Below, in pieces: positions 2,858 through 18,761 of a DNA stretch of 18,761 nt. The stretch is taken from the NCBI GenBank assembly GCA_043754515.1, contig JAYUUO010000015.1:1-18761 (forward strand). The letters run 5' to 3'. Under the pieces are notes generated by a model. It was not told the DNA's origin and searched no databases. It saw nothing but the letters and a program-made list of their open reading frames with translations. This stretch comes from Armatimonadota bacterium (GTDB lineage: Bacteria; Armatimonadota; Armatimonadia; Armatimonadales; Armatimonadaceae). Each line of letters begins with the position of its first letter. Positions within the stretch are counted from its first letter, which is position 1. Made by a program: the position numbers and the translations under genes.

Positions 2858-3151
2858 ATGAACATTCGACCTCTCGGTGACAAGGTTGTGGTCAAGCCCG
2901 CCGACGCTGATGAAAAGTCCGCTGGCGGCATTATTCTCCCGGACGCGGCGAAGCAGAAGCCGCAAGAGGGCACTGTGATCGCGGTCGGTAACGGACGCGT
3001 CCTCGACAGCGGCGAGAAGCACGCGCTGACGGTGAAGGTAGGCGACGTCGTCGTCTACAGCAAGTACGGCGGCACCGAGTTCAAACTCGGCGGCGACACG
3101 GTGATGATCCTCGACGAAGATCAAATTTACGGAATCAAGGAGCAGAAATAG
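2858..3151 (+). CDS. groES: Co-chaperonin GroES
   Basis: 97 aa, [12 protein letters not shown]...GGIILPD...VAVGNG...[16 protein letters not shown] at 2845-2850. Confidence 0.98.
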
Positions 3152-3153
3152 TT

Positions 3154-4782
3154 ATGGCAGCCAAGGAACTTTTATTCGACGAGCAGGCGCGGCGCGCCCT
3201 CGAGCGCGGCGCGAACGCGGTAGCGAACGCCGTCAAGGTGACTCTCGGACCGCGCGGACGCAACGTAGTGATTGACAAGAAGTGGGGTTCGCCGACGATC
3301 ACGAAGGACGGCGTGACGGTCGCGAAAGAGATCGAACTGGAAGACAAGTTCGAGAATATGGGCGCACAACTGGTTCGCGAAGTCGCCTCGAAAACCAACG
3401 ATGTCGCGGGCGACGGCACCACCACCGCCACCGTGCTCGCACAGGCGATTGTGACCGAAGGCCTGCGCTACGTCGCGGCGGGCGGCGCGCCCCTGTCCGT
3501 GAAGCGCGGCATTGACAAAGCGGTCGAAGCGGCGGTCGCGGCTCTCAAAGCCAACGCCACCGAAGTGACCGACTCAGCCTCCATCGCGCAGGTCGCGGCG
3601 ATCTCGGGCAACAACGACAAAGAGATCGGCGATCTCGTCGCCAAGGCCATGGACGCGGTCGGCAAAGACGGCGTAATCACGGTCGAGGAGTCGAAGGGCA
3701 CCGCGACCAGCCTGGAAGTCGTCGAGGGCATGCAGTTCGATAAGGGTTACATCTCACCGTACTTCGTCACGGACGCCGAGCGGATGGAAGCCGTGATCGA
3801 GAACCCGGCGATCCTGCTCTACGAGAAGAAGATTTCGGCGGCGGCGGACCTGCTCCCGATCCTCGAAAAGCTCGCGCAATCGCGCCGCCCGCTCCTGATC
3901 ATCGCCGAAGACCTCGACGGTGACGCGCTCGCGACTCTGGTCGTGAACAAGATCCGCGGCATCCTGAACGTCGCGGCGGTCAAGGCCCCCGGGTTCGGCG
4001 ACCGACGCAAGGCGATGATGGAAGACCTCGCGGTACTGACCGGCGGCAAGTTTATTACCGAAGACCTCGGCATGAAGCTCGACACGATTGACGTTTCGAT
4101 GCTCGGCACCGCCAAGCGCGTGACGATCACCAAGGACGAGACCACGATCGTCGAGGGCGCGGGGACGGTCGAGGCGATTCAGGGTCGTATTTCGCAGATC
4201 CGCAAGCAGATCGAGAACACGGACTCCAGCTACGACAAGGAAAAACTGAACGAGCGGCTCGCGAAACTCGCGGGCGGCGTTGCGGTCGTCCAGGTCGGCG
4301 CGGCTACGGAGACCGAACTGAAGGAAAAGAAGCACCGCTACGAGGACGCCCTTTCGGCGACCCGCGCGGCGGTCGAAGAGGGGATCGTGCCCGGCGGCGG
4401 CACCGCGCTGATCAACATCATCCCGGCACTCGCGAACGTCCAGTGCGACAACAAGGACGAGGAAGTCGGCGTCCAGATCGTGCGCCGCGCTCTGGAAGCA
4501 CCACTCCGCACCATCGCGGAGAACGCCGGCCTCGAAGGCTCCGTTGTCGTGAATAATGTCAAGGGATTGCCGAAGGGCCAGGGGTTCAACGCGCTGACGG
4601 AAGAGTACGGCGACATGATCGGCTTCGGGGTGATTGACCCGGTGAAGGTGACGCGCTACGCGCTGTCGAACGCGGCCTCGATCGCTTCGATGATCCTGAC
4701 GACGGAGTCGCTGGTGGTGGAGAAGGTGGAGAAGAAGTCGGGCGGCGCGGGCGGCGGGCACAGCCACGACGACGACTACTAA
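3154..4782 (+). CDS. groEL: Chaperonin GroEL
   Basis: 542 aa with hallmark motifs [46 protein letters not shown] and EEGIVPGGG. The tail is [13 protein letters not shown]. Confidence 0.99.
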
Positions 4783-4810
4783 GCGGTAGTTGGTTGCTAC
4801 ACAACCGAAA

Positions 4811-4834
4811 GCCCCGTGCCGAAAGGCGCGGGGC
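4811..4834. terminator. Intrinsic terminator-like hairpin after groEL (possibly bidirectional)
   Basis: GCCCCGTGCC-GAAA-GGCGCGGGGC is a 10-bp stem (one G-U) with a GNRA loop, between groEL and convergent gene X1. Confidence 0.75.
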
Positions 4835-4854
4835 GTTCAAACAATCTAGGCTTC

Positions 4855-5556
4855 TCACCAACGGCGGTGGGTCGGGTTGCCAAAATCTCTCGGGGATACT
4901 GACCCGTAAAAAACGCGTTTTGATGTCTTAGTAGGGGTTGGGGCTTGTGTTGTCTGAGTAGGCGCGGGTTCGTATCTCAGTGAGAGTCTTGCCTCTGCCC
5001 GAAACTTATAAAGAACGCCCATCAGTTTGTCCGTGGTGCCCCCACTTCCTCGCTCCACGCTACATATCTGTCTAATGAGACGCTTTCCTCCTGACGACAA
5101 TATACGCTCGTAAACTTCCAAAACCGACAAAGATGGATTGTCAAAGAAGGCACATGTAATACTGCTACGAACGTCTTCTTTCTGTTGTTTGCGCTTGGCG
5201 ACCTCTCGTGCAAGTCTCGCCATCGCGAGCTCTTTTGCATGTGCACTTGCCCTATCATTTTGCGCTACTTCTTCTCTACGCTTCCTCTCCGCTTTTCGCT
5301 TTTGTCGCTCCGCTTCTTGCCTTTGCCGCTCTGGAAGTTCTCGTCGCTTATACACCTCAAACGTGCCAACAACATCAGCAACAGATGGTGTGCGTTTTAT
5401 CACCTCCGGCAACTTGTAGACGACTTTTAGAATGTCGCTGTAAGTAACCTTTTTGCCATAAACATGGGATACTTCTTTGTAACACAGGTTTACATCCGTC
5501 TCCGTAATTTCAAGACGAGTAGCAATGTCGGCGATCAGGTCCGAGTCTGTTCTCAT
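4855..5556 (-). CDS. Orphan protein X, copy 1 (233 aa)
   Basis: ATG at 5556 (MRTDSDL...) is preceded by GGAGGT at 7-nt spacing, preferred over the GTG at 5607. Conserved N-terminal ~75 aa, charged coiled-coil middle, C-terminal SVSPRDFGNPTHRRW. Visibly more AT-rich than groEL. Confidence 0.7.
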   Translation of the reverse strand: MRTDSDLIADIATRLEITETDVNLCYKEVSHVYGKKVTYSDILKVVYKLPEVIKRTPSVADVVGTFEVYKRRELPERQRQEAERQKRKAERKRREEVAQNDRASAHAKELAMARLAREVAKRKQQKEDVRSSITCAFFDNPSLSVLEVYERILSSGGKRLIRQICSVERGSGGTTDKLMGVLYKFRAEARLSLRYEPAPTQTTQAPTPTKTSKRVFYGSVSPRDFGNPTHRRW

Positions 5557-5612
5557 TCGTGGAACCTCCAGGATAATTTTCACCAAGCGACCGAAGACTT
5601 CCTTCACCTGTT

Positions 5613-5633
5613 TGGTACAATAAACGGCAGGAG
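5613..5633 (+). promoter_or_regulatory. Extended -10 promoter and SD for the antitoxin gene
   Basis: TG-G-TACAAT (5613-5621), AGGAG (5629-5633), ATG 5640. The same TGGTACAAT occurs at 7085-7093 and 10278-10286. Confidence 0.7.
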
Positions 5634-5639
5634 AAACCG

Positions 5640-5885
5640 ATGACCCTATCTATCACCGTCCCGGATACGATTGCTACGCGCCTTGTCGCCCTGCCGCAAG
5701 CCGAGCGCGATTCGCTCGTCACCGAACTGCTCACCGAAGCGTGGGACGCTGAAGACGACTTGCGCGAGCGCGAAGACGCCGCGATACGACGCGGAATCGC
5801 CGACGACGAAGCGGGGCGATTCGTGACGTTCACCACGTATGAGGCGTTCCGCGACGAGTGCATAGCGAGAACCGGGCGAAAATGA
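5640..5885 (+). CDS. Putative type II antitoxin (CopG/ParD-like), copy 1
   Basis: 81 aa. Beta-strand start MTLSITVPD and acidic C-terminal AIRRGIADDEAGR typical of ParE-partner antitoxins. Stop overlaps the next ATG (ATGA). Confidence 0.7.
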   Translation: MTLSITVPDTIATRLVALPQAERDSLVTELLTEAWDAEDDLREREDAAIRRGIADDEAGRFVTFTTYEAFRDECIARTGRK

Positions 5886-5914
5886 GCGACGACGAGACCA
5901 CAATCGTTGCTTGA
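5882..5914 (+). pseudogene. Stub of the cognate toxin gene (first codons only)
   Basis: ATGA-coupled MSDDETTIVA*. It has the same position and a similar acidic start as the ParE-like gene of unit 2 (MTDENDAP). Confidence 0.45.
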
Positions 5915-5988
5915 CCGCTTCGGGTAACATCCCGGACGCCGCGAACTATTCCGACCATCTGCCGCTACTCTTGCGGCTCGATATGTAA
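5911..5988 (+). pseudogene. C-terminal remnant of an endonuclease/exonuclease/phosphatase (EEP) family gene
   Basis: Hand translation LTASGNIPDAANYSDHLPLLLRLDM* has the terminal SDHxP catalytic motif followed by a hydrophobic strand and stop. No 5' part is present. Confidence 0.6.
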
Positions 5989-6003
5989 ACGAGGAACAAC
6001 ATT

Positions 6004-6395
6004 ATGCCAGTCACCGAGAACTTTTGGTCGGAGACGATAGACGAAGCCGTTCCCGCCCCGGTCGCTATCCTGCGCGAACAGGGCGAAGCCCTCGCCGAGC
6101 AAACCGAGGGCGTCTGTTCGGCGAGGTTCTTGACAGCGTGATCGCGGGCGCGGAAGGTGTTGACTAAGATTTTTATGTAGGCGTTACCGACAAACCGTAC
6201 CGGTACAACTTTCTCGCGGTAAACATCCCGCTCACCGCCGATTACCCGGTCGTGCTAACGAATCACGACGCGGGAGTGACAACGCAGATTTCTGATCAGA
6301 CGGATTTTGAAAATCAACTCAAGGTAGTTCTTCGCTCCGCCGCGACCAGGCATATTCTCCGCCGCATGATGTTTTTAGCCAACCCCGTGAAGTAG
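6004..6395 (+). pseudogene. Disrupted conserved hypothetical gene (~130 codons)
   Basis: SD GAGG upstream. MPVTENFWSETIDEAVPAPVAILREQGEALAEQTEG, then a frameshift near 6112, in-frame TAA at 6165-6167, then DFYVGVTDKPYRYNFLAV...DYPVV...DFENQLKVVLRSAATRHILRRMMFLANPVK*. Confidence 0.65.
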
Positions 6396-6428
6396 ATAGG
6401 CAGAACCCCGTCGCCGAAGTCGAGTGCG

Positions 6429-6516
6429 GCTTCGATGACGCTGACGACCGAGTCGTTGGTGGTCGAAAAGGCAGAAAAGAAAAAGTGCGCCCGCCGGGAA
6501 GCATGACGATGACTAA
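6429..6516 (+). pseudogene. Displaced groEL 3' tail, copy 2
   Basis: Reads [18 protein letters not shown] versus gro[20 protein letters not shown] (44/54 nt by hand). After a frameshift it ends CAT GAC GAT GAC TAA AGCG, like groEL CAC GAC GAC GAC TAC TAA AGCG. Confidence 0.85.
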
Positions 6517-6575
6517 AGCGTGGTCGCTTATCGCTCCGGTATACGAGTGCCGGGCGTTCAGACCGTTCGGGTTTC

Positions 6576-7028
6576 TTACCAACGGCGGTGGGTCGGATTG
6601 TCAAAATCCCTCGGGGATACCGATCCGTAGAAGATCTGTTGTTTGGGCGCGGCGTCCTCTCGTGCAAGTCTCTCGATCTCGAGCCGTTTTGCGTGTGCTA
6701 ATGACCTATCATTTCGCGCCTTGTTTCCACCGCGCGGTTGCTCCGCTTTTCGCTTCCGTCGCTCTGAGAATTGCAGTTGATCCGCTTCTCGCCTTTGCCG
6801 CTCTAAAAATTCTCGCCGATAATCCATCTCAAACGTGTCAACAACTTTAGCAACAGTCGGTGTACGTTTTAACGTCTCCAGCAACTTGTTTATGACTTTT
6901 AAAATGTCGCTGTAAGTGACCTTTCTACCGTAAACACGGGATACTTCTTTGTAACACAGGTTTACATCCGCCTCCGTAATTTCAAGACGAGTAGCAATGT
7001 CGGCGGTCAGGTCCGAGTCTGTTCTCAT
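6576..7028 (-). CDS. Orphan protein X, copy 2 (150 aa)
   Basis: Same GGAGGT-N7-ATG start, N-terminal domain and FYGSVSPRDFDNPTHRRW end. Lacks about 80 aa present in copy 1, with the frame preserved. Confidence 0.7.
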   Translation of the reverse strand: MRTDSDLTADIATRLEITEADVNLCYKEVSRVYGRKVTYSDILKVINKLLETLKRTPTVAKVVDTFEMDYRREFLERQRREADQLQFSERRKRKAEQPRGGNKARNDRSLAHAKRLEIERLAREDAAPKQQIFYGSVSPRDFDNPTHRRW

Positions 7029-7111
7029 TCGTGGAACCTCCAGGATAATTTTCACCAAGCGACCGAAGACTTCCTTCACCTGTTTGGTACAATAAACGGC
7101 AGGGGAAACCG

Positions 7112-7348
7112 ATGACCCTATCTATCACCGTGCCGGATACGATCGCCACGCGCCTTGTCGCCCTGACGCAAGCCGAGCGCGACGCCGATGTTGCCGACGC
7201 GCTTGTGTTGAAATGGAACGCGGACGACGAACAGGAAGCCGCTATCAATCGGGGCATTGACGAGTTCAAGGCGGGGCAAATGATGTCGCACGAGGCTTTC
7301 ACCGCGAAGTGGAACGAGTTTCGAGCGGCGCAAGTGTCGGCGCAATGA
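7112..7348 (+). CDS. Putative type II antitoxin (CopG/ParD-like), copy 2
   Basis: 78 aa. First 24 aa nearly identical to copy 1, then AINRGIDEFKAGQMMSHE. ATGA overlap with a ParE-like toxin. Confidence 0.72.
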   Translation: MTLSITVPDTIATRLVALTQAERDADVADALVLKWNADDEQEAAINRGIDEFKAGQMMSHEAFTAKWNEFRAAQVSAQ

Positions 7349-7690
7349 CGGACGAAAACGACGCGCCGGTTTACGTTCTGCAATTCACGAGCGACTTTTT
7401 CGCCGACGTTCGCAAAGGGTGGGAACACTCCCGCCTTCACGCAAACGAGGAAGTCGCCGGCGCGAACCGTGGTCTAAATCCTCCGAAACCCGCTTGGCTA
7501 CGGGCTTCCTGACGAGTACGGACACTTCCGCAAGCCGATGCGCCGAATGATTCACCGCCGCACACCTAGTTCCGTAGCGTACCGCGTCCTGTATTTCGTG
7601 GACGTTCCCGCGCCGCAACCGGACGGCACGACAGCGACGCCGGTTGTAATTGTCGCCGCGCTACACGCTTCCGCGAGACCGTTGTCCGCG
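7345..7690 (+). pseudogene. RelE/ParE-family toxin, frameshifted/internally deleted
   Basis: One frame gives MTDENDAPVYVLQFTSDFFADVRKGWEH.... After a break near 7460-7478 another frame gives LRNPLGYGLPDEYGHFRKPMRRMIHRRTPSSVAYRVLYFV...VVIVAALHASARP, matching the ParE pattern (NPxG...YRxxY...V.I...H). The natural stop appears lost; the end coordinate is approximate. Confidence 0.75.
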
Positions 7691-7810
7691 CGAAAAGCCT
7701 GTGCGTTAGACCGGGTCGCGCACCATCGGCGTCGAAACCGACCCCGGGCTTCTGGCGCGGGTGCTCGCGGGAAGCCTCGCCTCGCGCGTCGCGGTATCAT
7801 AAAACAAGTT

Positions 7811-8260
7811 ATGCCCATCCCCCCTTTCCGCGACGACAGCTGGCTCCCCGACGGGCATCACGCCGCGACGTGGGAAGAGATAGCGGACGCGCTGGGCGGC
7901 GAGACCGGTTCGAAGCGGGCGGCGGTGCTCGCGGGTTTGCTGGCGTGGCGCGACGCTGTGCGGTCAGAAGGCTTGTCGGGCCTGGTCATCCTGGACGGCA
8001 GCTTCGTGTCTGCGAAACCCACGCCCGGTGATTTCGACCTTGTGTTTCTGTATCACGCGGAGCATGAGCCGGTGGCGAACACGGACGATTCGGTGAAGGC
8101 ACTGCTGGATTTGACGGAGGGCAAGGCACGGTTCGGCGGCGACATTTTCGCGTTCTCGGGGCGAACGGTTGGCGCGTCCATTTTACAAAAGCCGAACGAA
8201 ATGTTTGACTACGTGAAGTTCACCGGGATACAGAAGGGCGTTCTGGAGACAAACCTATGA
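7811..8260 (+). CDS. DUF6932-like putative nucleotidyltransferase-fold protein, copy A
   Basis: 149 aa from ATG 7811. IPPFRDDSWLPDGHHAATWEE start and LDGSFVSAKPTPGDFD (GS...DxD, Pol-beta-like motif). TATCAT at 7795-7800 lies just upstream with no SD, so possibly near-leaderless. Confidence 0.75.
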   Translation: MPIPPFRDDSWLPDGHHAATWEEIADALGGETGSKRAAVLAGLLAWRDAVRSEGLSGLVILDGSFVSAKPTPGDFDLVFLYHAEHEPVANTDDSVKALLDLTEGKARFGGDIFAFSGRTVGASILQKPNEMFDYVKFTGIQKGVLETNL

Positions 8261-8532
8261 TTGAGAACAACGAACAGTTAGCGGCAACTCTCGAATATAT
8301 CGCGAAGTGGGCGGACGCTTTAGAGGGGTTGCGACAAGTGGAAGCGGCGGAGAACAAGACCAGCTTCTTTCCCGTGTCCGCGAACGGACCGCTGACCGAG
8401 ATCCGCGAAAACCTCGCGCTCGCCCGCGAGTACCTCAGCCGGGGAGTCGCAAAAAAGTCTGCTCCCACGAACGGTGCGTACACGAACGGTCACGCCGCGC
8501 CAACAACGCCGAAGGTGCTGGTAGAAGCCTGA
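8257..8532 (+). CDS. Small helical partner protein of DUF6932-like gene, copy A
   Basis: 91 aa, ATGA overlap. Homologous to 8950-9228 (EQLAxTL, LEGLRQ, NLALARE, TNGAxYTNGH). Confidence 0.75.
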   Translation: MIENNEQLAATLEYIAKWADALEGLRQVEAAENKTSFFPVSANGPLTEIRENLALAREYLSRGVAKKSAPTNGAYTNGHAAPTTPKVLVEA

Positions 8533-8620
8533 ACGGGTCGTATGAAACCCATTCGGAGGGAGGCGCACGCGTCGGGTGTGGTACGCCGGGAGGGGAGTCC
8601 GCGTATGAACTTCACGCAAC

Positions 8621-8953
8621 TTGAAGGGCCTTCTGGCGTGGCGCGACGCGGCGCGGGCGAAAGGCTTGTCCGGCCTGGTGGTTCTCGACGGCAGCTTCGT
8701 ATCCGCGAAACCCGCGCCCGGCGACTTCGACCTGATTTTCTTGTTCGACGAGGCATCAAAGCGTGTTTCGTCCGCTGACGAGGACGCTAAAGCCTTGCTC
8801 GACAACGCAAGCTGTGTTAACCGGTTCGGCGGCGATGTGTGGGCGTTCTCGGCGGGAATGGCACTAAGCCATCCCCACTTCGTTCCGCTCGACACGTTCG
8901 ATAGAACGAAAGACACGCGAAAACCGAAAGGCGTTTTGGAGGTGACAATATGA
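8621..8953 (+). pseudogene. DUF6932-like protein copy B, 5'-truncated
   Basis: Aligns to copy A from GLLAWRDA and keeps LDGSFVSAKPAPGDFD and KGVLE. The N-terminal ~40 aa are missing and there is an in-frame TGA at 8606-8608. Confidence 0.7.
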
Positions 8954-9228
8954 GCGACCGAGTCGAAAGTATGGAGCAGTTAGCCGGGACACTGGCCTAT
9001 CTGACGACGATGGCGGATTTTCTGGAAGGGCTCCGGCAGTACGAAGAAGAAACCGGCGAACATGACTTCGTCATCTCCGGTTCATACCCGATTCACGAGT
9101 TGCGGAAGAACCTCGCCCTTGCCCGCGAGTTTGCCGAGCGTGAAATAGACCACCCTTCAACGAACGGCGCGGCGTACACCAACGGTCACACCGCTGCCGC
9201 GCAATCAAAGGCTTTAGCCGGTGCATAG
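8950..9228 (+). CDS. Small helical partner protein, copy B
   Basis: 92 aa, GGAGGTG SD, ATGA overlap; paralogue of 8257-8532. Confidence 0.75.
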   Translation: MSDRVESMEQLAGTLAYLTTMADFLEGLRQYEEETGEHDFVISGSYPIHELRKNLALAREFAEREIDHPSTNGAAYTNGHTAAAQSKALAGA

Positions 9229-9230
9229 TC

Positions 9231-9383
9231 GGTCGAACGCCGAATGTGCGGGCTGTTTGGTTCGTGGACAGCGGCGAGACTGTTCCGCGCTTTGTCACCG
9301 CGTATCCGCTTGACGTGATGCCAATTATGAACCTCGCGCCGCCGACGGGAAAGGAACAAAATAATGGTACAGGAACTGGATAG
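9231..9383 (+). pseudogene. C-terminal fragment of a DUF6883-like gene
   Basis: Hand translation GRTPNVRAVWFVDSGETVPRFVTAYP matches the PRxVTAYP end of the family usually found upstream of DUF4926. It has no start and begins 2 nt after the previous stop. Confidence 0.7.
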
Positions 9384-9594
9384 AGTGATTTTGCAGGCAG
9401 ACTTACCGGAGCATGGCTTAATCGCGGGCGACCTCGGCACGGTGGTTCTGGTCTACAAAAACAACGCGGGCTATGAAGTCGAGTTCTTCGCGCTGACCGG
9501 CGATACGATTGCGGTGGCGTCTGTCTCTGCCGACAAAGTGCGCCCGGTGCGCCGTTCTCAGGTCGCGCACGTCCGCGACTTAGTCACTCCTTGA
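9364..9594 (+). CDS. DUF4926 family protein (putative antitoxin/immunity partner)
   Basis: 76 aa, ELDRVILQADLPEHGLIAGDLGTVVLVY...GYEVEF...G.TIAV. SD AAGGA upstream. Confidence 0.85.
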   Translation: MVQELDRVILQADLPEHGLIAGDLGTVVLVYKNNAGYEVEFFALTGDTIAVASVSADKVRPVRRSQVAHVRDLVTP

Positions 9595-9596
9595 AC

Positions 9597-10311
9597 GAAT
9601 CGCTGGTGGTCGAAAAGTCAGAAAAGAAAAACCACGCCCGCCGGTGGGCACTGTCACGACTACTCAAGTGTATTCGCTCATCACCACGGTATACGAGTGC
9701 CGGGGCGTTCAAGCGATTCGGGCTTCTTACCAGCGGCGGTGGGTTGGATTATTAAAATCCCTTGTGGATACAGACGTGTGTTCGGGCTCTGCGACCTTTT
9801 GTGCAAGTATCGCCGTCTCGTGCCTTTTTTCTTGTGCTACTCCCCTTGCTGCTCCAGGACTCATTGGTTCCCTACTTATTTTCTCCCTTTCATTGCGTTT
9901 CGCCGTCGCGAGCTGTTGTGCTTTTACTATTTTCTTGTTAATTCGCGCTATTTTCTCCAGGCTACGCGATCGCTCCGCTTCTTGCCTTCGCCGCTCTGGA
10001 AGTTCTCGTCGCTTATACACCTCAAACGTGCCAACAACATCAGCAACAGTCGGTGTACGTTTTATCACCTCCGGCAACTTGTAGACGACTTTTAGAATGT
10101 CGCTGTAAATAACCTTTTTGCCGTAAACGTGGGATACTTCTTTGTAACACAGGATTACATCCGCCTCCGTAATTTCAAGACGAGTAGCAATATCGGCGAT
10201 CAGGTCAGAGTCTGTTTTTATTCGTGGAACCTCCGGGATATTTTCCACCAAGCGACCGACGATTTCCTTCACCTGTTTGGTACAATGAACAGCAGGAGAA
10301 ACCGATGACCC
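9597..10311. repeat. groEL-anchored repeat unit 3 (truncated at the antitoxin start)
   Basis: groEL tail (ESLVVEKSEKK ... GGHCHDY, 9597-9663), terminator right arm CGGGGCGTTCAA, gene X3, TGGTACAAT, AGGAGAAACCGATGACCC, then abrupt loss of similarity. Confidence 0.88.
9727..10221 (-). pseudogene. Orphan protein X, copy 3 (open frame but start codon ATG changed to ATA)
   Basis: IKTDSDLIADIATRLEITEADV...SVSTRDFNNPTHRRW. The SD is retained but the codon at 10221-10219 is ATA. It could still use the GTG at 10272. Confidence 0.6.
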
Positions 10312-10440
10312 GATAGGAACCGGGTGACTTGATCGTGCCTGAGGCAATAAAGCGGCGAGCCCTGTCGCCGTGGCTTGCCCGAAGAAAACGAGCAAGTAGT
10401 CTGTGTACGAATCCAGCAATCGGCGGGTGCGTTCGGTCAT
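10309..10440 (-). mobile_element. IS701-like transposase N-terminal fragment
   Basis: MTERTRRLLDSYTDYLLVFFGQATATGLAALLP, then after a frameshift HDQVTRFLS. YxDYL...TATGL...SHDxxTRFL is characteristic of this family. The rest is deleted. Confidence 0.75.
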
Positions 10441-10518
10441 GGCAGGAGACGCCGCACGAGCGGCTACGCCATTTTACCAACTTCCAACCGCGTAAAGGAA
10501 GTTGCATAGCAACCGCAT

Positions 10519-10554
10519 CTGAAGCCACGGGCTTCAGCCCTGTGAAGTTGTCAC
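10519..10554 (+). mobile_element. IS200/IS605-like right-end remnant (hairpin ending in TCAC)
   Basis: CTGAAGCC-ACG-GGCTTCAG is a perfect hairpin overlapping a second one (CACGGGCT-TC-AGCCCTGTG), followed by AAGTTGTCAC. This resembles tnpB-element 3' ends. No tnpA or tnpB nearby. Confidence 0.5.
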
Positions 10555-10624
10555 TACCATTCGGTGTGTCATGGTTGACACGAGGGAGGAGGACGTGCCG
10601 AAATCCCTCCGCTCCCGCTCCGAG

Positions 10625-11957
10625 TCAGGCGAGTGTATCAATCAGGTCGCCCATCGTGAAGGTGTCGAACACGTTTTTGGTTTCACTGTCGCCCCACAGC
10701 GGCTTCCAGTTCGGATCCATGGCGAGGAACGAATCGTTGTCGCCCAGGATCAGGCCGATGAGCACCTCCCCGACGATCCTGCCGCCGACCGGGCCGAGCG
10801 TTGTGTGCTGGGCGTTCTTCTCGTCGTTCGTTGTCTGACGCTCTTCCGCGCGGTGCCGCCACTTGTCCAGTGCTTCCGCGAGGACGTAGAACCAGAGGGG
10901 TGCCTTTCCAGCAAATCGTGCGTCAACATCCACGATGGACGGGTTCGCGATCCCGCTGAATTCGTTGCTCGCATCGGGCTTCAATCCGTCCGCGTTGTGG
11001 CTTTACCGACCAGCAGTCTTTTGTCCGGGATCGGCTTCAGTCCCATTAATCGCGCCACCGACTGACCCGACGGCAACTGGAGCGTCACCCCGCGTTTCAG
11101 GTTCCGGAACGCCAGGCTGTTCGTGTGATCCGCGCCCATCGGACACTCCGTTCCGGGCTTGGAGAACTCGGGTAGGAACTTGAGAGGTGCTACCAGCGAG
11201 GTATCCATCTTATAGGCGGGCTGTACTCGTCCTGGCCCCCCGGTCGCGGGATTAAGACGGTGTGATCTTGTCTCGAAAAACAGATGCCAGTCAATGCCGT
11301 TCTCGGCGGGGAACTCGCGGAAACCGTTCAGTCCCTCATTGGCTACCGGCGCGAACACCAGGCGGCGACCCTCTAGACCTTCTGGAACCGTGAGGCCGGG
11401 CGTGGTACTCAGGATTGGCCGCGCTCAACCTATAAGCGGGTCGTACCATGCTGTGTCCGAACCGGTAGGCCGCCCCGCTGAACTCGACGGGCATGAACGG
11501 ATCGCACTTGTAGTTGAAGAAGTGCAATCGGGGGGCGTGGTCGTAGATGTAGGGTTGATCGTCCGGCCCGCGCCCATACAACCCGTCCAGGTCCAGCGCG
11601 GGCGTCTGGAAATCAATAAGGCCGTTCGGGTCGTTCAGTTTCACCAGGCTGCTCAGCGGGTCGAAGGTGATGTCGTGATCTACGAACTGTCCGAAGTAGG
11701 TGTAGCCCGCGGGTAGTCCGAAGTTCTCCTCGTCATCGGGGGGACTGGCACCTTCGAGAGTCATTGTCGCCTCTGGTCTTAAGTATCATCGCATCCGCCA
11801 AGTTAATCAGGGCATCGTCATCGAAGTCGGCGGGAGGTAAGGATCGAAACAGGCGACCGAATCGTCCTTCATGTAGTCGCGAGCGGGGGGTAGAGTCTAA
11901 CCCGCGCTCCAGGCGTCCGTGTTCAGTAGGTATCTTTTCCAAGTTTTTGCCTTTCAC
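10625..11957 (-). pseudogene. Bacterial heme peroxidase (animal peroxidase/cyclooxygenase superfamily), decayed
   Basis: Four consecutive minus ORFs carry GRFGRLF, AGYTYFGQFVDHDITFD, LDLDGLYGRGP, EFSGAAYRFGHS, LAFRNLKRG..LPSGQ, PLWFYVLAEA and LGPVGGRIVGEV. Frameshifts near 11760, 11400-11350 and 10985, plus a large in-frame deletion near 11540. Confidence 0.88.
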
Positions 11958-13653: not shown

Positions 13654-14643
13654 TCACAACGTCGCGAACCGTAGGCCCCTGTTTCGTAAACCGGCTAGAA
13701 TCGCCGGGAGCGCGGCGCGGGTGTCGGCCACTCCGGCGTGGAGTGCGATCACGGCACCCGCTCGGGCGGCGAACAGCACCCGCCGCACCGTTTCGGCGAC
13801 GCCGGGGCGTGTGTGATCGAACGGCGCGATGACCGCCCGGCGCGGCGCGACGATGGTGCTGTTGTTCGTGTCGCGCAGTTCGGTGCTACCAGGCGGGCGG
13901 TACAGCGTCGGGCGGGTATCCGTTATGCCGCGCAGAACGCTCAGGCAACGCGGCAGGTCGGGACGCGTCGCGTCATGATCCCATGAGTGGAGTTGCAAAG
14001 AGTGTCCTTCGCGGGCGGCGCGTCGGGCGGTCGCCGCGCCCGCCGGGCGCGTGAGATGCTCGCAGATGCAGAAGAATGTACACGGGGCGTCGCCCGCCCG
14101 CAGAATATCGAGAAGCAGTTCGTCGGGCGAATCGCGGTTTCCGGGCGAGGTCGGCGTAGGGAAGTCGTCGAACGACAGGTAGATGTCGCCGGGGGAGTTC
14201 GTGTCCGCCATGGGCGCGGCGCGGCCCGTGGCGAGACTGCGTAGGAGCAGTTCGAGTTCGTCGGTGCGGACGATTCCCTGGCGCGCGGACCGGATCACGC
14301 CGCGCGCGTCAACAACCAGCGTCCAGGGCACGGCGCGAAGCCCCAGCCCCGCGCTGATCTGGCCGCCGACGTCTAGTAGGACACCGCACCCGCCCGCGCC
14401 GGTCGGGAACCGCTCCGCCCACCGCCCGTCCACGCTGACCGTCACGTACCCGACTGGTAGACCAGCCAGTCGCGCCTGGACCGCGTCTAGGCGGCGGCTC
14501 TGCTCGCGCCATGTGTCGCACCATAGGGCGCAGAACGAGAGTACGGTGACCCGGCCCGGACGCCAGGTCACTGGTCGCCCGTCCGGAAAGGTCAGCAGGG
14601 TGAACGGCGCAACCGTCTCGCCCGGACCGGCGGGTGGCTTCAC
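13654..14643 (-). CDS. Fusion of TlpA/redoxin-like thioredoxin fold and NodB-type polysaccharide deacetylase
   Basis: N-half: APFTLLTFPDG, VLSFCALWCDTW, VTVSVD, VLLDVGG, AVPWTLVVDARG. C-half: YLSFDDFP, TFFCI, EGHSLQLHSWDH, LYRPPG, VIALH, LPAILAGLRNRGLRFATL. The GTG start overlaps the upstream TGA. Confidence 0.82.
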   Translation of the reverse strand: MKPPAGPGETVAPFTLLTFPDGRPVTWRPGRVTVLSFCALWCDTWREQSRRLDAVQARLAGLPVGYVTVSVDGRWAERFPTGAGGCGVLLDVGGQISAGLGLRAVPWTLVVDARGVIRSARQGIVRTDELELLLRSLATGRAAPMADTNSPGDIYLSFDDFPTPTSPGNRDSPDELLLDILRAGDAPCTFFCICEHLTRPAGAATARRAAREGHSLQLHSWDHDATRPDLPRCLSVLRGITDTRPTLYRPPGSTELRDTNNSTIVAPRRAVIAPFDHTRPGVAETVRRVLFAARAGAVIALHAGVADTRAALPAILAGLRNRGLRFATL

Positions 14644-17600
14644 GGCGTTTTCTCCGCGACTGGCTTGCTCGTACCGCGCGCCGCCTCCCGCACGTCCAGC
14701 ACCTGGGATGCGCTTCCGCCGCGGACACGGGGGCGGCGGATCAATTCCCCGGTTGCGGGCAGGGCGATCAGGGTGCCTTCCGACTCGGCTCTCAGGTAGT
14801 AACGGAACGTCACCGGCTCGGAGCCGTGTACCGATAGGTAGTGTAGCAAGGCACCATCGCGCACCTCCTCGCGCACGTTCGACATGCGCTCGGAATCAAC
14901 GAACTCGAACCCGGATGGGAGCGGTTCAGTCACGCGCAGGGCGTCGGCGGACTCGCCCGGCCAGACGACCACCGTGACGCGCACCGCCGACGCGGGGAGT
15001 ACGTCGGTAACACCAGGTAATACTTCGCCCCAGACGCCGAACATGCTTTGTGCCTCGAACCGGCGCAATACGCGCATCCCCCCGGCGGTTTCGCCGACTT
15101 GCGGCCGATAAACGACCGCCTCGGCGGCTAAAAACGCGGCGTTGCGGGCGGTGCCTTTACGGACAAGCGTGATCGCGTTCGTGCCGTCCTTCAGCAGGGA
15201 GCGCGGCACTGATGCCGTGAGCGGCGTGGTGGTTTCGGTCCCCGGAGCGCGGGCTTCCCAGGGCACCGGGACGCCGTTCACGGTGACCGAGAAGTCGCCT
15301 GGGGACGGCATGAGGGACCGCACCGTGGCGTCGCCGCTCCCGCCCGAAACGGCGCGACTATACAGGAGCAGGGCGCGAACCGTGTCTGCCTGCTCGGAAT
15401 CGGTCGCGTCGGACGAGTCCTCGCCGCCCTCGCCGGGGAGCAGGAGCCAGCGGGCCAGTTTGGATTGCAGGGGCGCGTCGTCACCGAGCGCGACCAGAGT
15501 TTCGAGCGCGAGCGCGGTGGTCTCGATCACGCCGCTACGCTGTCCCGGACGCTCGCCCGCCGGGATGTACGCCGAGTCAACTCCCGACACCGCCAACGCA
15601 AACACCAGTGCCGCCAGTTGCCGCGCCCGTTCCTTATTGCCGGTTTCGAGTATCCCCTTGGCGAGCGCGAGTGTCGCCGCCGGGGATAGGAAGGCGGCAT
15701 CCCGCTCCGCGACTTCGGCAAGGTACGCCGGTTTCTCCGTGGCCGGCGCGAGGAACGCTCTTTCCTCCGGCAGGCCGCTCTCCTTGTACAGCGCGTCGGC
15801 ACCCCGGAGGCCCCGACTGAGCAGGGCTTCGGGGAACGGCAGATCACGCGGCAACAGGTTCGGCGCGGCCTTCACGGCGCGCAGGGCGCGTAGCACCCGC
15901 GCCGTAACGCGGGCGTCGGCGGGCGCGTCCTCCCACCAGCCCCAGTCCCCTTGCGGCGACTGCGAGCGCGACAGGAACGCCAGCGCGTCGCGTAACAACT
16001 CCGGCTTCATCGGCGGTGCGCCGGGAGTCGCGGCGACCAGGAGCCGATCCGCCGCCGCGATTGTCCCGTAACTGCCCGTCGCGTATAGCCCGGTAGCGGC
16101 GGCGCGGGCGGAGGATTCCGGCCCGCCGCGTACGGTGATCAGCAGATCGGTGGCCGGTTCGAGCCGGTCGGCGGGCAAATCCAGGGTGAGCGCGGCGGTG
16201 TCGCCAGGAACGGCGACACCTGCCTGTATCCGGGTCGCGACGCCGCGCGGGCGAACCGGCACCGCCATCCGCAAGTGATCCGAGTAGTCCGCGAGCGTCT
16301 CGCCCGGCGTGCGATCCGTCGCGATCAGCGTCGCGTCGAGCACCGCGCGGCCGTCCGTCGTGGGGATTGTTTCCGCCGACACGTGCCACTCCACCTTCGC
16401 CTCGCCCTTCGCCTTGACGGTGACGGATTTCGTCGCGCTCTCGTTCGCGGCGGGCTGCACTCCGGTGGCGTTCAAGGTCACGGTGAACGTGTGATCGCGT
16501 TCAGAGCGGTTCGAGACCGTGCCGATCAGAGTCAGTTGATCCCCCTGGACGAACTGGCGCGGGGCGGCTATGCGCAACATGACCAGGCGTGACGCGGTGA
16601 TTTTAGACACGGCGCGACCGACCGCCGTGGACCTGGTGACGCCCAGAGCCGTCGCTCGCCACGCCGTCAAGTTACCGGGCAGTTCGACATGGGCGACCGC
16701 CATGCCGTCGGGGCCGGTGAGAAGGTGGGCGTTCCAAAACGCCGTGTCGAGAAACTTCTGGCGCACCGGCGCGACGCCATCCGGAGCGGCACGCTGGTAT
16801 GCGCCGCCGCTGACCTCTTCGGGCGCGGAGGCGTTGGTCTGCGTATGGTTGCCGCGAAGGCCCCAGAACGTCGCGTACAGGTCGGGGGTCGCGTCGGGGC
16901 GCACCGCGAAGATGGCCTCGTCAATCACGGCGAGCACGACTTCGGCACCGACGACGGGTTGACCGCTCTTGCCGTCCCGGGCGCGGATCGTGTAGATCAC
17001 TGTGTCGCCGGGGCCGTGTTCCGCGCGGTCGGGCGTAACGCTTAAGTCGAGGCGGCGCGAGCGATCCGGCACCGGGAGCGTGGTGGTGCAGTCAATCAGC
17101 CGCGAGAAATGCGAAGCTTTGGATATGACGTGTGCCCACTGCGTCGCCGTCACGTAGACGTTCGGCGACATCGCGAGCGTGACCGGCACTTTCCAGACGA
17201 ACCTGGTCTTTCCCGGCAGCATGACCTTCACCGCGAACAGCGACTCTCCTTCAATGGTTAGCAACACCGGCCGTTTCGGGGAGTTGGTAGTCAGGAAAAC
17301 GGTGGCGGTCTCGCCGGGCTGGTAAGACGGCTTCCCAAGCCGCGCTTGGACGATCGGTTCTTTCACCTCCTCCTCGCTAGGGGTATCCGGGGCAGCGACA
17401 TAGAAATGAGTGGTTGCTATCGCGATACGTCCCGTCCCGTCAGCGATGGTGGCGCGAACCTCGACGTCGCCTTCCTTCGCGGCGGGGACGTTCGTCGTCT
17501 GCTTCCCACTCGCGGGCACCACGGCGGCGGACTGGCTGAGAACGTGCCACTCCGAAATGTGCTTTTTCTCGTCCCACTCCTGTTGGCGCGTGACCAACGT

Positions 17601-18761
17601 CACCTTGCTGCCAGCGGGTCGCCCGTCGGGGTCGCTGACGATCAAATCCACCGGCACCACGGCATTGAGCGGGGCCACCTGATTCTGGGCACGGATTCCG
17701 AGCCGGAGCGTGGCGGCATAAACTGGCACCGAAGCGGTCGTGGTGACCTCGCGCCGCTGGCCATCCGTCACGGTCGCCGATATGGTGTAGGCGGCGTCCC
17801 CCATATCCCTCTTCGTCGGGAACGGTATCGTCGCGTTCCCGGCGGCGTCCGTAACGACCGTGCCGTCCCCGACCACCGCGTCGGCGGCGTATGTGTCGTG
17901 GGCGTACAGGTTGCCGTCGCCGCTCGCGAACCACGCGGAATCGGCGGGGTCGTCCGACAGCGAGCCGTAGAATGGCGTGGGACGGCTCCGAATCAGGTAG
18001 CGCACGGCGGCACCGGGGAGCGGCGCGCCGAAGTAGTAGCTCGCCTTGAGCGCGAATGTGCCGGGTTCGCCGGACAGGTACCGTTCCTTGCCGGGTGTCA
18101 CCGAAGCAAGGAAGTCCGGCTTGCGGTACTCAGCGACCGTGAATGTCGCGTAGGCTTTCTGTCCGTCCTTCGCCGTCAACACGAGAGAGTAGGCACCGAG
18201 CGAACCCCGCGCCGGAACCGGGAATGATCCGGCGAGCGTGCCGATGGCGTTCGTCTTCTCCTCCGTGCGCTGGAAAACGTTGTCGCGGCTGTCGCGTATC
18301 TCCGTGGTAATCGGCTCCGTGACTGGGGCCGCGAACCCGTTCCCCCGCGTTCTCCGCAGGATCGCGCGGTAAGAGACGGTCGCGCCGGGTCGGTAAATGG
18401 GGCGGTCAGTTTGCAAGTGGCTGACCAGATGGCCGTCGGGACTAACCCCCGACACCAGCAACCCGGCACGGTCTACTGATTGCCCTGGCGTGCTTCGCGT
18501 CACGATCAGCACCTGCCCCGCGTCCGATCTCGCCGCGATCTGACACACGCCGTCTTTATCGGATCGCCCCCGCGCAATCTCCTTATCGCCCGATTTGTCC
18601 CAAATCGTCACGGTCGCGCCGACGACCGGTGATCCGGTTCGGTGATCCGTCACCCAGGTTAGCACGGCGTTCGGGGAGCGTTTGACCACGACAGCGAGTT
18701 GTGTGACGTTCACCACCGCCCACGTCCGTCTTCCGCCGCCGCTCGCCACCAGCAGGTACGC
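14640..18761 (-). CDS. Bacterial alpha-2-macroglobulin family protein (5'-truncated by the window)
   Basis: More than 1370 aa, with the frame open to the window end. Motifs TDRPIYRPG (MG2), FTVAEYRKPDF, ASYYFGAPL, LAVIDEAIF, VRQKFLDTAFW, LPGNLTAWR, QSPQGDWGWW and EPLPSGFE. Confidence 0.93.
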   Translation of the reverse strand, partial: AYLLVASGGGRRTWAVVNVTQLAVVVKRSPNAVLTWVTDHRTGSPVVGATVTIWDKSGDKEIARGRSDKDGVCQIAARSDAGQVLIVTRSTPGQSVDRAGLLVSGVSPDGHLVSHLQTDRPIYRPGATVSYRAILRRTRGNGFAAPVTEPITTEIRDSRDNVFQRTEEKTNAIGTLAGSFPVPARGSLGAYSLVLTAKDGQKAYATFTVAEYRKPDFLASVTPGKERYLSGEPGTFALKASYYFGAPLPGAAVRYLIRSRPTPFYGSLSDDPADSAWFASGDGNLYAHDTYAADAVVGDGTVVTDAAGNATIPFPTKRDMGDAAYTISATVTDGQRREVTTTASVPVYAATLRLGIRAQNQVAPLNAVVPVDLIVSDPDGRPAGSKVTLVTRQQEWDEKKHISEWHVLSQSAAVVPASGKQTTNVPAAKEGDVEVRATIADGTGRIAIATTHFYVAAPDTPSEEEVKEPIVQARLGKPSYQPGETATVFLTTNSPKRPVLLTIEGESLFAVKVMLPGKTRFVWKVPVTLAMSPNVYVTATQWAHVISKASHFSRLIDCTTTLPVPDRSRRLDLSVTPDRAEHGPGDTVIYTIRARDGKSGQPVVGAEVVLAVIDEAIFAVRPDATPDLYATFWGLRGNHTQTNASAPEEVSGGAYQRAAPDGVAPVRQKFLDTAFWNAHLLTGPDGMAVAHVELPGNLTAWRATALGVTRSTAVGRAVSKITASRLVMLRIAAPRQFVQGDQLTLIGTVSNRSERDHTFTVTLNATGVQPAANESATKSVTVKAKGEAKVEWHVSAETIPTTDGRAVLDATLIATDRTPGETLADYSDHLRMAVPVRPRGVATRIQAGVAVPGDTAALTLDLPADRLEPATDLLITVRGGPESSARAAATGLYATGSYGTIAAADRLLVAATPGAPPMKPELLRDALAFLSRSQSPQGDWGWWEDAPADARVTARVLRALRAVKAAPNLLPRDLPFPEALLSRGLRGADALYKESGLPEERAFLAPATEKPAYLAEVAERDAAFLSPAATLALAKGILETGNKERARQLAALVFALAVSGVDSAYIPAGERPGQRSGVIETTALALETLVALGDDAPLQSKLARWLLLPGEGGEDSSDATDSEQADTVRALLLYSRAVSGGSGDATVRSLMPSPGDFSVTVNGVPVPWEARAPGTETTTPLTASVPRSLLKDGTNAITLVRKGTARNAAFLAAEAVVYRPQVGETAGGMRVLRRFEAQSMFGVWGEVLPGVTDVLPASAVRVTVVVWPGESADALRVTEPLPSGFEFVDSERMSNVREEVRDGALLHYLSVHGSEPVTFRYYLRAESEGTLIALPATGELIRRPRVRGGSASQVLDVREAARGTSKPVAEKTP

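Follow-up and report, generated by a model that had tools for sequence, protein, structure and literature searches.

How do gene cassettes come to be stacked behind a housekeeping gene that itself stays intact, at a site where no integrase is found? The question is raised by a stretch of 18,761 nucleotides from an Armatimonadota bacterium (hereafter the window, which is the entire contig C15 of the 5.13-Mb, 313-contig assembly of genome G000), in which groES-groEL (2858-4782, from the list of open reading frames (ORFs)) is followed by repeated copies of the groEL 3′ end and by putative toxin-antitoxin (TA) genes. A preliminary description of this DNA had proposed a three-unit array lacking an integrase and three ways in which it might have formed: mobilization in trans, homologous recombination through groEL or erosion of former islands. 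The second fits best, and we hold with moderate confidence that such arrays probably arise by groEL-anchored, homology-facilitated additive insertion followed by RecA-type exchange between the repeats, with no integrase involved. Each unit consists of a groEL end, a terminator or its remnant, an orphan gene (X), a promoter containing TGGTACAAT and the start ATGACCC; three diverged copies lie at 4684-5710, 6429-7182 and 9593-10314. The groEL-derived parts are as follows.

3154-4782, plus strand: groEL, 542 aa with a His/Asp-rich C terminus, from the ORF list, with full-length matches in 41/41 genomes.
4684-4782, plus strand: tail of unit 1, the last ~100 nt of groEL itself, from the sequence.
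4811-4834, no strand assigned: intact terminator-like hairpin of groEL, from sequence, folding and alignment; congeners G001 and G002 have it behind their groEL as well.
6429-6516, plus strand: tail 2, a decayed groEL 3′ end (68/88 nt identical) with an extra A in an A-run and a collapsed terminator after it.
9593-9668, plus strand: tail 3, a decayed groEL 3′ end (54/75 nt identical) with the extra A of tail 2 and the collapsed terminator.

Comparison of positions 4501-10700 with the genome (blastn) bore out the three-unit array, pairing 4684-4911 with 6429-6632 (69% identity), 5181-5710 with 6635-7182 (85%), 5305-5649 with 9970-10314 (94%) and 6446-6700 with 9593-9839 (75%) at E values of 1e-17 to 1e-178. 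The spacing between tails is 1745 nt (tail 1 to tail 2) and 3147 nt (tail 2 to tail 3). No further copy of X or of the two extra tails, a search for which had been proposed at the outset, was found by blastn elsewhere in the 313 contigs. The GroEL C terminus GHSHDDDY (window 4750-4782), His/Asp-rich, is common across the order, and a second paralogue on contig C303 ends in GGM repeats.

Misassembly of strain variants, named in the preliminary description as a way in which the array could be false, is suggested by the fragmentation of the assembly and by unitigs that break within the repeats. Reads were checked through Logan unitigs from two runs, X1 and X3, both of a single study that is possibly the origin of the assembly. 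In both runs, the block spanning the unit-1 cargo (A1 and U), tail 2 and X2 (5602-6967) and the block from A2 through the DUF4926 gene and tail 3 to X3 (7074-10019) each form one unitig with 0 differences. Depth in the inter-repeat blocks is 21.9 against flanks of 24.6-24.8 in run X1, and 7.7-8.5 against flanks of 8.3-9.0 in run X3. Because the blocks are single unitigs with 0 differences at flank depth, the junctions between cargo and tail are genuine and minority strain variants do not account for the blocks; the unitigs end within the X-5′/promoter repeats, and block order across these repeats is without independent proof. The same architecture, with three tails, occurs in the near-complete G104 (5 contigs, 99% complete). 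The three units are real, and their single-copy depth argues against strain misassembly, which we consider very improbable.

The tails record different degrees of decay, with identity to groEL of 77% in tail 2 and 72% in tail 3, and 80% between tails 2 and 3 including downstream bases. Folding of the terminator region gave -32.2 kcal/mol in unit 1 and -22.5 and -16.5 kcal/mol in units 2 and 3; the order of tail and terminator first read in all three units holds with an intact hairpin in unit 1 only. Since the frameshift (extra A) and the collapsed terminator are common to tails 2 and 3, both descend from one already decayed copy and are not two independently displaced groEL ends, as every tail had been taken to be. 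At least one unit was thus copied after decay, a point in favour of local tandem duplication of the whole segment (tail, X, promoter and cargo) within one chromosome, with cargo later replaced by unrelated insertions and deletions. The confinement of X to this population favours the same explanation, as do a whole-gene duplication in G203 (locus L070, G203:C2:775873-779551), where two tandem groEL copies share 96% identity within the 519 nt that were compared and one copy appears frameshifted, and four other short 3′-end copies in G000. The latter, on contigs C47 (~12447), C287 (reverse complement, ~761), C21 and C68, are 40-75 nt copies of the 3′ ends of other genes, 0.1-2 kb downstream, and came from a scan that returned 9 rows from 2422 ORFs, several of them paralogues or repeats. 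An antitoxin-like ORF lies within the C287 stretch.

Orphan groEL ends are not peculiar to this genome. A tail peptide was compared with 71 genomes of the order and a tail profile with 401 genomes of the phylum, 392 of which matched; of the profile scan, 150 of the 714 rows were covered, and 20 genomes were followed up. At least 12 of the 392 genomes, representing 8 families, have confirmed orphan tails (G000, G002, G009, G066, G070, G104, G117, G129, G137, G141, G292 and G336). The tails copy the last 75-300+ bases of groEL and usually lie 0.7-2.5 kb behind it, and the intervening cargo up to the first tail spans the same 0.7-2.5 kb, except in G129. The three tails of G104 are spaced at 2777, 1236 and 1208 nt, and in G070 the repeat extends past the terminator to a TTGGTATAATGG promoter. 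Most of the cargo genes resemble TA genes; Pfam names among them are XisH/XisI, DUF433 with DUF5615, PIN, Gp49 with HTH_37, ParE and GNAT, and HNH-like genes were recognized by eye in G137. Dropped from the count were G203 (whole-gene duplication), G107 and G062 (frameshifted genes), G130, G093, G142, G180, G147, G176, G192 and G326 (full genes or contig-edge pieces), G078 (two matches, E 0.017) and a G009 match upstream of groEL (E 0.019). A control with the enolase end yielded 0 orphan tails in 382 matched genomes, the extra matches in 34 genomes all being paralogues, contig-edge splits or one frameshifted gene. With G000 excluded, the counts are 11/391 for groEL and 0/381 for enolase (Fisher p 0.0009), a comparison in which kin are non-independent, the query types are unmatched (for enolase a single sequence in place of a profile) and enolase is perhaps not the last gene of its operon. 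Judged from these genomes, the pattern is phylum-wide and dynamic. TA-like pairs, recognized by eye, also lie directly behind groEL without a tail duplicate at loci L033, L036, L040, L012, L020 and L027.

Such repeats could also have been left by cis-mobilizable or eroded integrative elements with a site in groEL, each bringing a replacement 3′ end and having its integrase elsewhere or lost. Staphylococcal islands are proven to use the 3′ end of groEL as an att site (PMC8125051), and tandem accretion is described as decaying to integrase-less cis-mobilizable elements (CIMEs) (PMC5704250). The groEL-over-enolase enrichment points the same way, with the same caveat about kin, as do fresh tails that mostly end within ~12 nt of the stop codon and the 14 tyrosine- and 7 serine-recombinase matches elsewhere in G000. 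XisH/XisI, found among the cargo, is accessory to a cyanobacterial excision system, and e14/icd is a precedent for long replacement ends. At the site itself, the lack of an integrase reported initially held for the window proteins, the window DNA and 16 related loci: 14 recombinase domains had no tblastn match in 176,491 bases (window plus the 16 loci), where a positive control was found for the tyrosine class only; none of the 23 window proteins matched a Pfam recombinase; and none of the genome's recombinase matches, a check that had been suggested, lies on C15. ORF inspection of 32 relative loci, many of them short, revealed no integrase-bearing island behind groEL. No long inverted repeat was found at unit borders, none of 8 proteins had a named PHROG match, and neither X nor the tail pattern was matched in viral contigs. 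Tails stand behind both groEL paralogues, and unit 3 is not closed by a fourth tail.

Tail start positions bear on both alternatives. The starts of 15 tails outside the window range from -206 to +36 nt from the Asn codon of NAAS (a span of ~240 nt), and six tails at 94-98% identity start at -192, -177, -134, -129, -98 and +12, including three distinct starts within G104, so that the starts of fresh tails can differ by up to 200 nt, and differ within one genome too. A single att site is disfavoured because starts scatter even among these near-identical tails. In G104, the XisH and XisI copies beside tails of 94-98% identity are only 49% and 43% identical at the protein level. With a single att core all tails should begin at one position, and after in-place duplication the cargo should be as close as the tails; neither is the case. 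In the window, cargo paralogues likewise share 64-69% nucleotide identity against 85-94% for the repeats, and a sharp step in identity between lineages in contig L051 (below) also speaks against duplication. We consider an integrase-dependent origin unlikely and duplication in place more so.

Comparison of the units, and of lineages, points to exchange among units. The odd one out is unit 1 at 34/56 sites in the tail and terminator region, unit 2 at 26/36 sites in 5300-5500 and unit 3 at 12/14 sites in 5500-5650; the three copies are mosaics. Contig L051 differs from the window at 42 positions in 711 nt of groEL and then at 0 in 689 nt (4696-5384), an identical run with a chance of 6e-19 at the groEL difference rate. 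It continues with a mosaic head and the unit-2 cargo joined directly to X1, and so has one unit fewer; it also has private alleles. A fixed att site at 4696, suggested by the L051 step, was dropped given the scattered tail starts. In P0002, an X2-type C terminus is joined to the IS701 fragment of unit 3. Behind groEL, congeners G001 and G002 carry other cargo followed by A-family genes and a similar head, with neither X nor a tail there. Hints of further variants come from the low-share runs X5-X8 (a junction of the DUF4926 gene with an A1-like gene, a tail-X variant at 86% and groEL ends lacking X), which are perhaps from related species; X6 resembles L051 and was not counted as independent. 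The cargo turnover predicted for a variable hotspot behind groEL is thus seen between lineages (L051 and the congeners), and the array is not static: L051, with its different unit-cargo join, departs from the fixed old triplication that had been considered as the contrary case. A further module, on G002:C211 (L054:9560-11124), comprises a groEL tail, a degenerate terminator, a minus-strand orphan, a head and an intact A-T pair; it lies away from groEL at a synteny break, and may have been separated by rearrangement or have moved.

We infer the following mechanism for groEL-tail arrays. DNA from a relative would pair through groEL while its other end joined illegitimately slightly inside the recipient groEL, which would restore groEL and push the old 3′ end and terminator behind the new cargo. 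The two flanking groEL ends would then offer two-sided homology, through which RecA-type exchange could add, swap or delete units without homologous chromosomal flanks. Here, as the comparisons partly bear out, the repeat would have grown to include X and the TA promoter, and with decay of the tails the 300-550-nt X-5′/promoter repeats (85-94% identical) would have taken over as the site of crossover, so producing mosaic copies and strains that differ in their unit-cargo joins. Addictive TA cargo might slow unit loss by inter-repeat deletion and decay later. Additive insertion fits because starts are scattered and deeply diverged cargo stands beside near-identical tails. As in displacement arrays, groEL anchors one side and variable, illegitimate-type joins form the other, and the cargo is acquired, not copied from a sister unit: besides XisH/XisI of G104, A1 is nearer to a congener's gene (92%, 226/246 nt, to the G002 copy) than to A2 (69%, 160/231), with the qualification that tails 2 and 3 reveal one secondary copying. 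The genome also encodes comEC and dprA domains, weak support in that both are widespread and presence shows no activity.

Several points weigh against this mechanism. Neither recombination events nor circles nor transfers were seen, and PMC5361080 puts homology-facilitated illegitimate recombination (HFIR) orders of magnitude below homologous recombination in frequency and presents it as no more than a proposal for natural arrays. The model alone does not explain tails at groEL and none at enolase (0/382). The starts cluster loosely (three at -36/-41 and four at -177 to -206), and 5′ erosion could scatter them away from one true att site. In G129 the cargo is not TA but 6.6 kb of polysaccharide genes; in G002 the tail and groEL are on different contigs; and the window's two A-type toxins are broken, which leaves them no present part in addiction. 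L051 and P0002 are metagenome assemblies, possibly chimeric across repeats.

The orphan gene X is present in every unit.

4855-5556, minus strand: X1, an orphan of 233 aa with GGAGG before the ATG, 49% GC overall and 46% at third codon positions (GC3), predicted to be all-helical.
6576-7028, minus strand: X2, 150 aa, without an 89-residue internal stretch present in X1.
9727-10221, minus strand: X3, whose own start is now ATA and whose open frame runs upstream into the IS701-like fragment.

Relatives of X are limited to its own copies, to P0002 and to contig L051; beyond the own copies and P0002, no homologue was found among 1350 candidates or in 1.84 billion representatives. X was found in 0/31 family genomes, had no match in viral or GTDB contigs and no usable match in the Atlas. 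Profile searches returned no family and Foldseek no fold at E<=0.001 (predicted template-modelling score of the X model, 0.29), in keeping with the initial view that X is not a recombinase. Because X was found in this population only, the suggestion that it belongs to a general module is not supported. A KfrA-like identity for the inner helices of X1 was a guess, without support. GC3 is low in the X copies (45-50% versus 85% in groEL), and the ratio of nonsynonymous to synonymous substitution rates is 0.35-0.89 over the first 82 codons and 0.06-0.08 over the last 15, where changes are few. X is likely, though not proven, to be protein-coding.

The heads and cargo of the three units comprise the following features.

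5613-5646, plus strand: TA head 1, with TGGTACAAT (-10-like), AGGAG and ATGACCC.
5640-5914, plus strand: A1, putative antitoxin of 81 aa, and a 10-codon partner stub (5882-5914), from sequence comparison.
6004-6395, plus strand: U, a broken hypothetical gene of the unit-1 cargo with a frameshift and an internal stop, from six-frame translation.
7085-7720, plus strand: TA head 2 at 7085, putative antitoxin A2 (7112-7348) and, starting at 7345, its partner T2, which is broken.
7811-8260 and 8257-8532, plus strand: DUF6932 gene N1 and B1, an overlapping pair (Pfam PF22014 above cut-off).
8621-8953 and 8950-9228, plus strand: 5′-truncated DUF6932 gene N2 and B2, an overlapping pair (Pfam PF22014 above cut-off).
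9364-9594, plus strand: DUF4926 gene (Pfam PF16277), whose stop codon abuts tail 3.
10278-10311, plus strand: TA head 3, ending at ATGACCC.
10309-10503, minus strand: 5′ fragment of an IS701-like transposase gene that truncates unit 3, 80% and 73% identical to contigs C184 and C280.

Cargo 1 thus consists of A1, the toxin stub and broken U, and cargo 2 of A2, broken T2, the two DUF6932 pairs (64-67% nucleotide identity to one another within 7811-9228) and the DUF4926 gene. Different cargo had been described after each unit; unit 3 ends at ATGACCC, where the IS701-like fragment starts (the C184 product matches IS701 models at E 4e-40, below cut-off). A and T genes are small and overlapping (ATGA), with the antitoxin first and their own promoter head; congeners lacking X likewise have a head resembling head 1 in front of this antitoxin family. 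G002 encodes an intact T2 relative of 133 aa and an A-family gene that precedes a ParE_like toxin (above cut-off). Because of this layout and the ParE_like neighbour, we infer that the A/T cargo represents TA pairs, as the preliminary description had it, presumably of type II, though A1, A2 and the T family have no match to Pfam or NCBIfam models. The T family, perhaps RelE/ParE-like as judged by eye, had no match among Pfam, Protein Data Bank sequences or folds (best Z 4.3 for a low-confidence model with a predicted local distance difference test score of 43). Another A/T pair, again with a similar head, occurs at G000:C36:41177-41703 (minus strand) without linkage to groEL; the 3′ part of its toxin appears replaced. 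Directly after the IS701 fragment, the window holds an animal-haem-peroxidase-like gene in pieces (10625-11957, minus strand; PF03098 on one piece), and 13654-18749 (minus strand) a bacterial alpha-2-macroglobulin gene and, after it, a thioredoxin-like/polysaccharide deacetylase fusion.

The arrival route of most small integrase-less islands is, in the accessible part of 10.64898/2026.01.13.699239, an open question. groEL-tail arrays offer a countable signature, the duplicated end of a housekeeping gene, that can be screened in any phylum and in which the tail start position separates site-specific from homology-driven insertion. Additive insertion, if true, would offer a reason for the pile-up of TA genes behind groEL in Armatimonadota. 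A bolder and more doubtful suggestion, advanced tentatively, is that TA cassettes flanked by two groEL 3′ ends, and so homologous on both sides to one of the most conserved genes, form a recombinase-free mobile class that uptake and RecA could insert into any relative and that addiction would keep from looping out; groEL would then be a phylum-wide, possibly wider, integron-like platform without an integrase.

Chromosomal integrons hold TA-rich small cassettes with their own promoters, stacked at one site. Unlike integrons, the array has no IntI-like gene nearby, and its spacer is a groEL coding end with a terminator, not an attC hairpin; C15 has no tyrosine recombinase and the borders no long inverted repeat, although no attC model was run. 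Staphylococcal phage-inducible chromosomal islands such as SeCI-SE48 use the same target gene and end and leave groEL intact, but are described in the accessible text of PMC8125051 as having an 18-bp att, their own integrase and phage packaging, none of which is seen in the groEL array. There is no integrase beside the site, no phage-interference, replication or packaging gene among the 8 proteins compared with PHROG families and no short fixed att core, and with repeats of 75-300+ nt and scattered starts the parallel first drawn with the att sites of Staphylococcus aureus pathogenicity islands does not hold. Accretion of integrative and conjugative elements, integrative and mobilizable elements and CIMEs is closer, with integrase-less modules at a gene 3′ end split by copies of that end (PMC5704250, accessible part). 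As in CIMEs, the modules have no integrase or transfer genes of their own; CIMEs, however, keep defined attL/attR and usually lie beside an integrase-bearing element (same source), whereas groEL arrays have direct repeats with scattered starts, and no such cognate partner was found behind groEL in 32 or 16 loci of incomplete coverage. In literature searches outside subscription papers, we found no description of duplicated groEL ends flanking TA cassettes. The sequential displacement arrays of Vibrio cholerae type VI secretion system (T6SS) effector-immunity genes and Rhs orphans, for which HFIR has been proposed and a parallel with integrons drawn (PMC5361080, accessible part), share a conserved upstream anchor, modules inserted beside it, old 3′ parts moved downstream and no integrase known in that account. 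In T6SS/Rhs arrays the anchor is the constant part of the toxin gene and the insert replaces its variable end (PMC5361080), whereas in groEL arrays an essential housekeeping gene serves as anchor and is restored, and the cargo has no relation to it.

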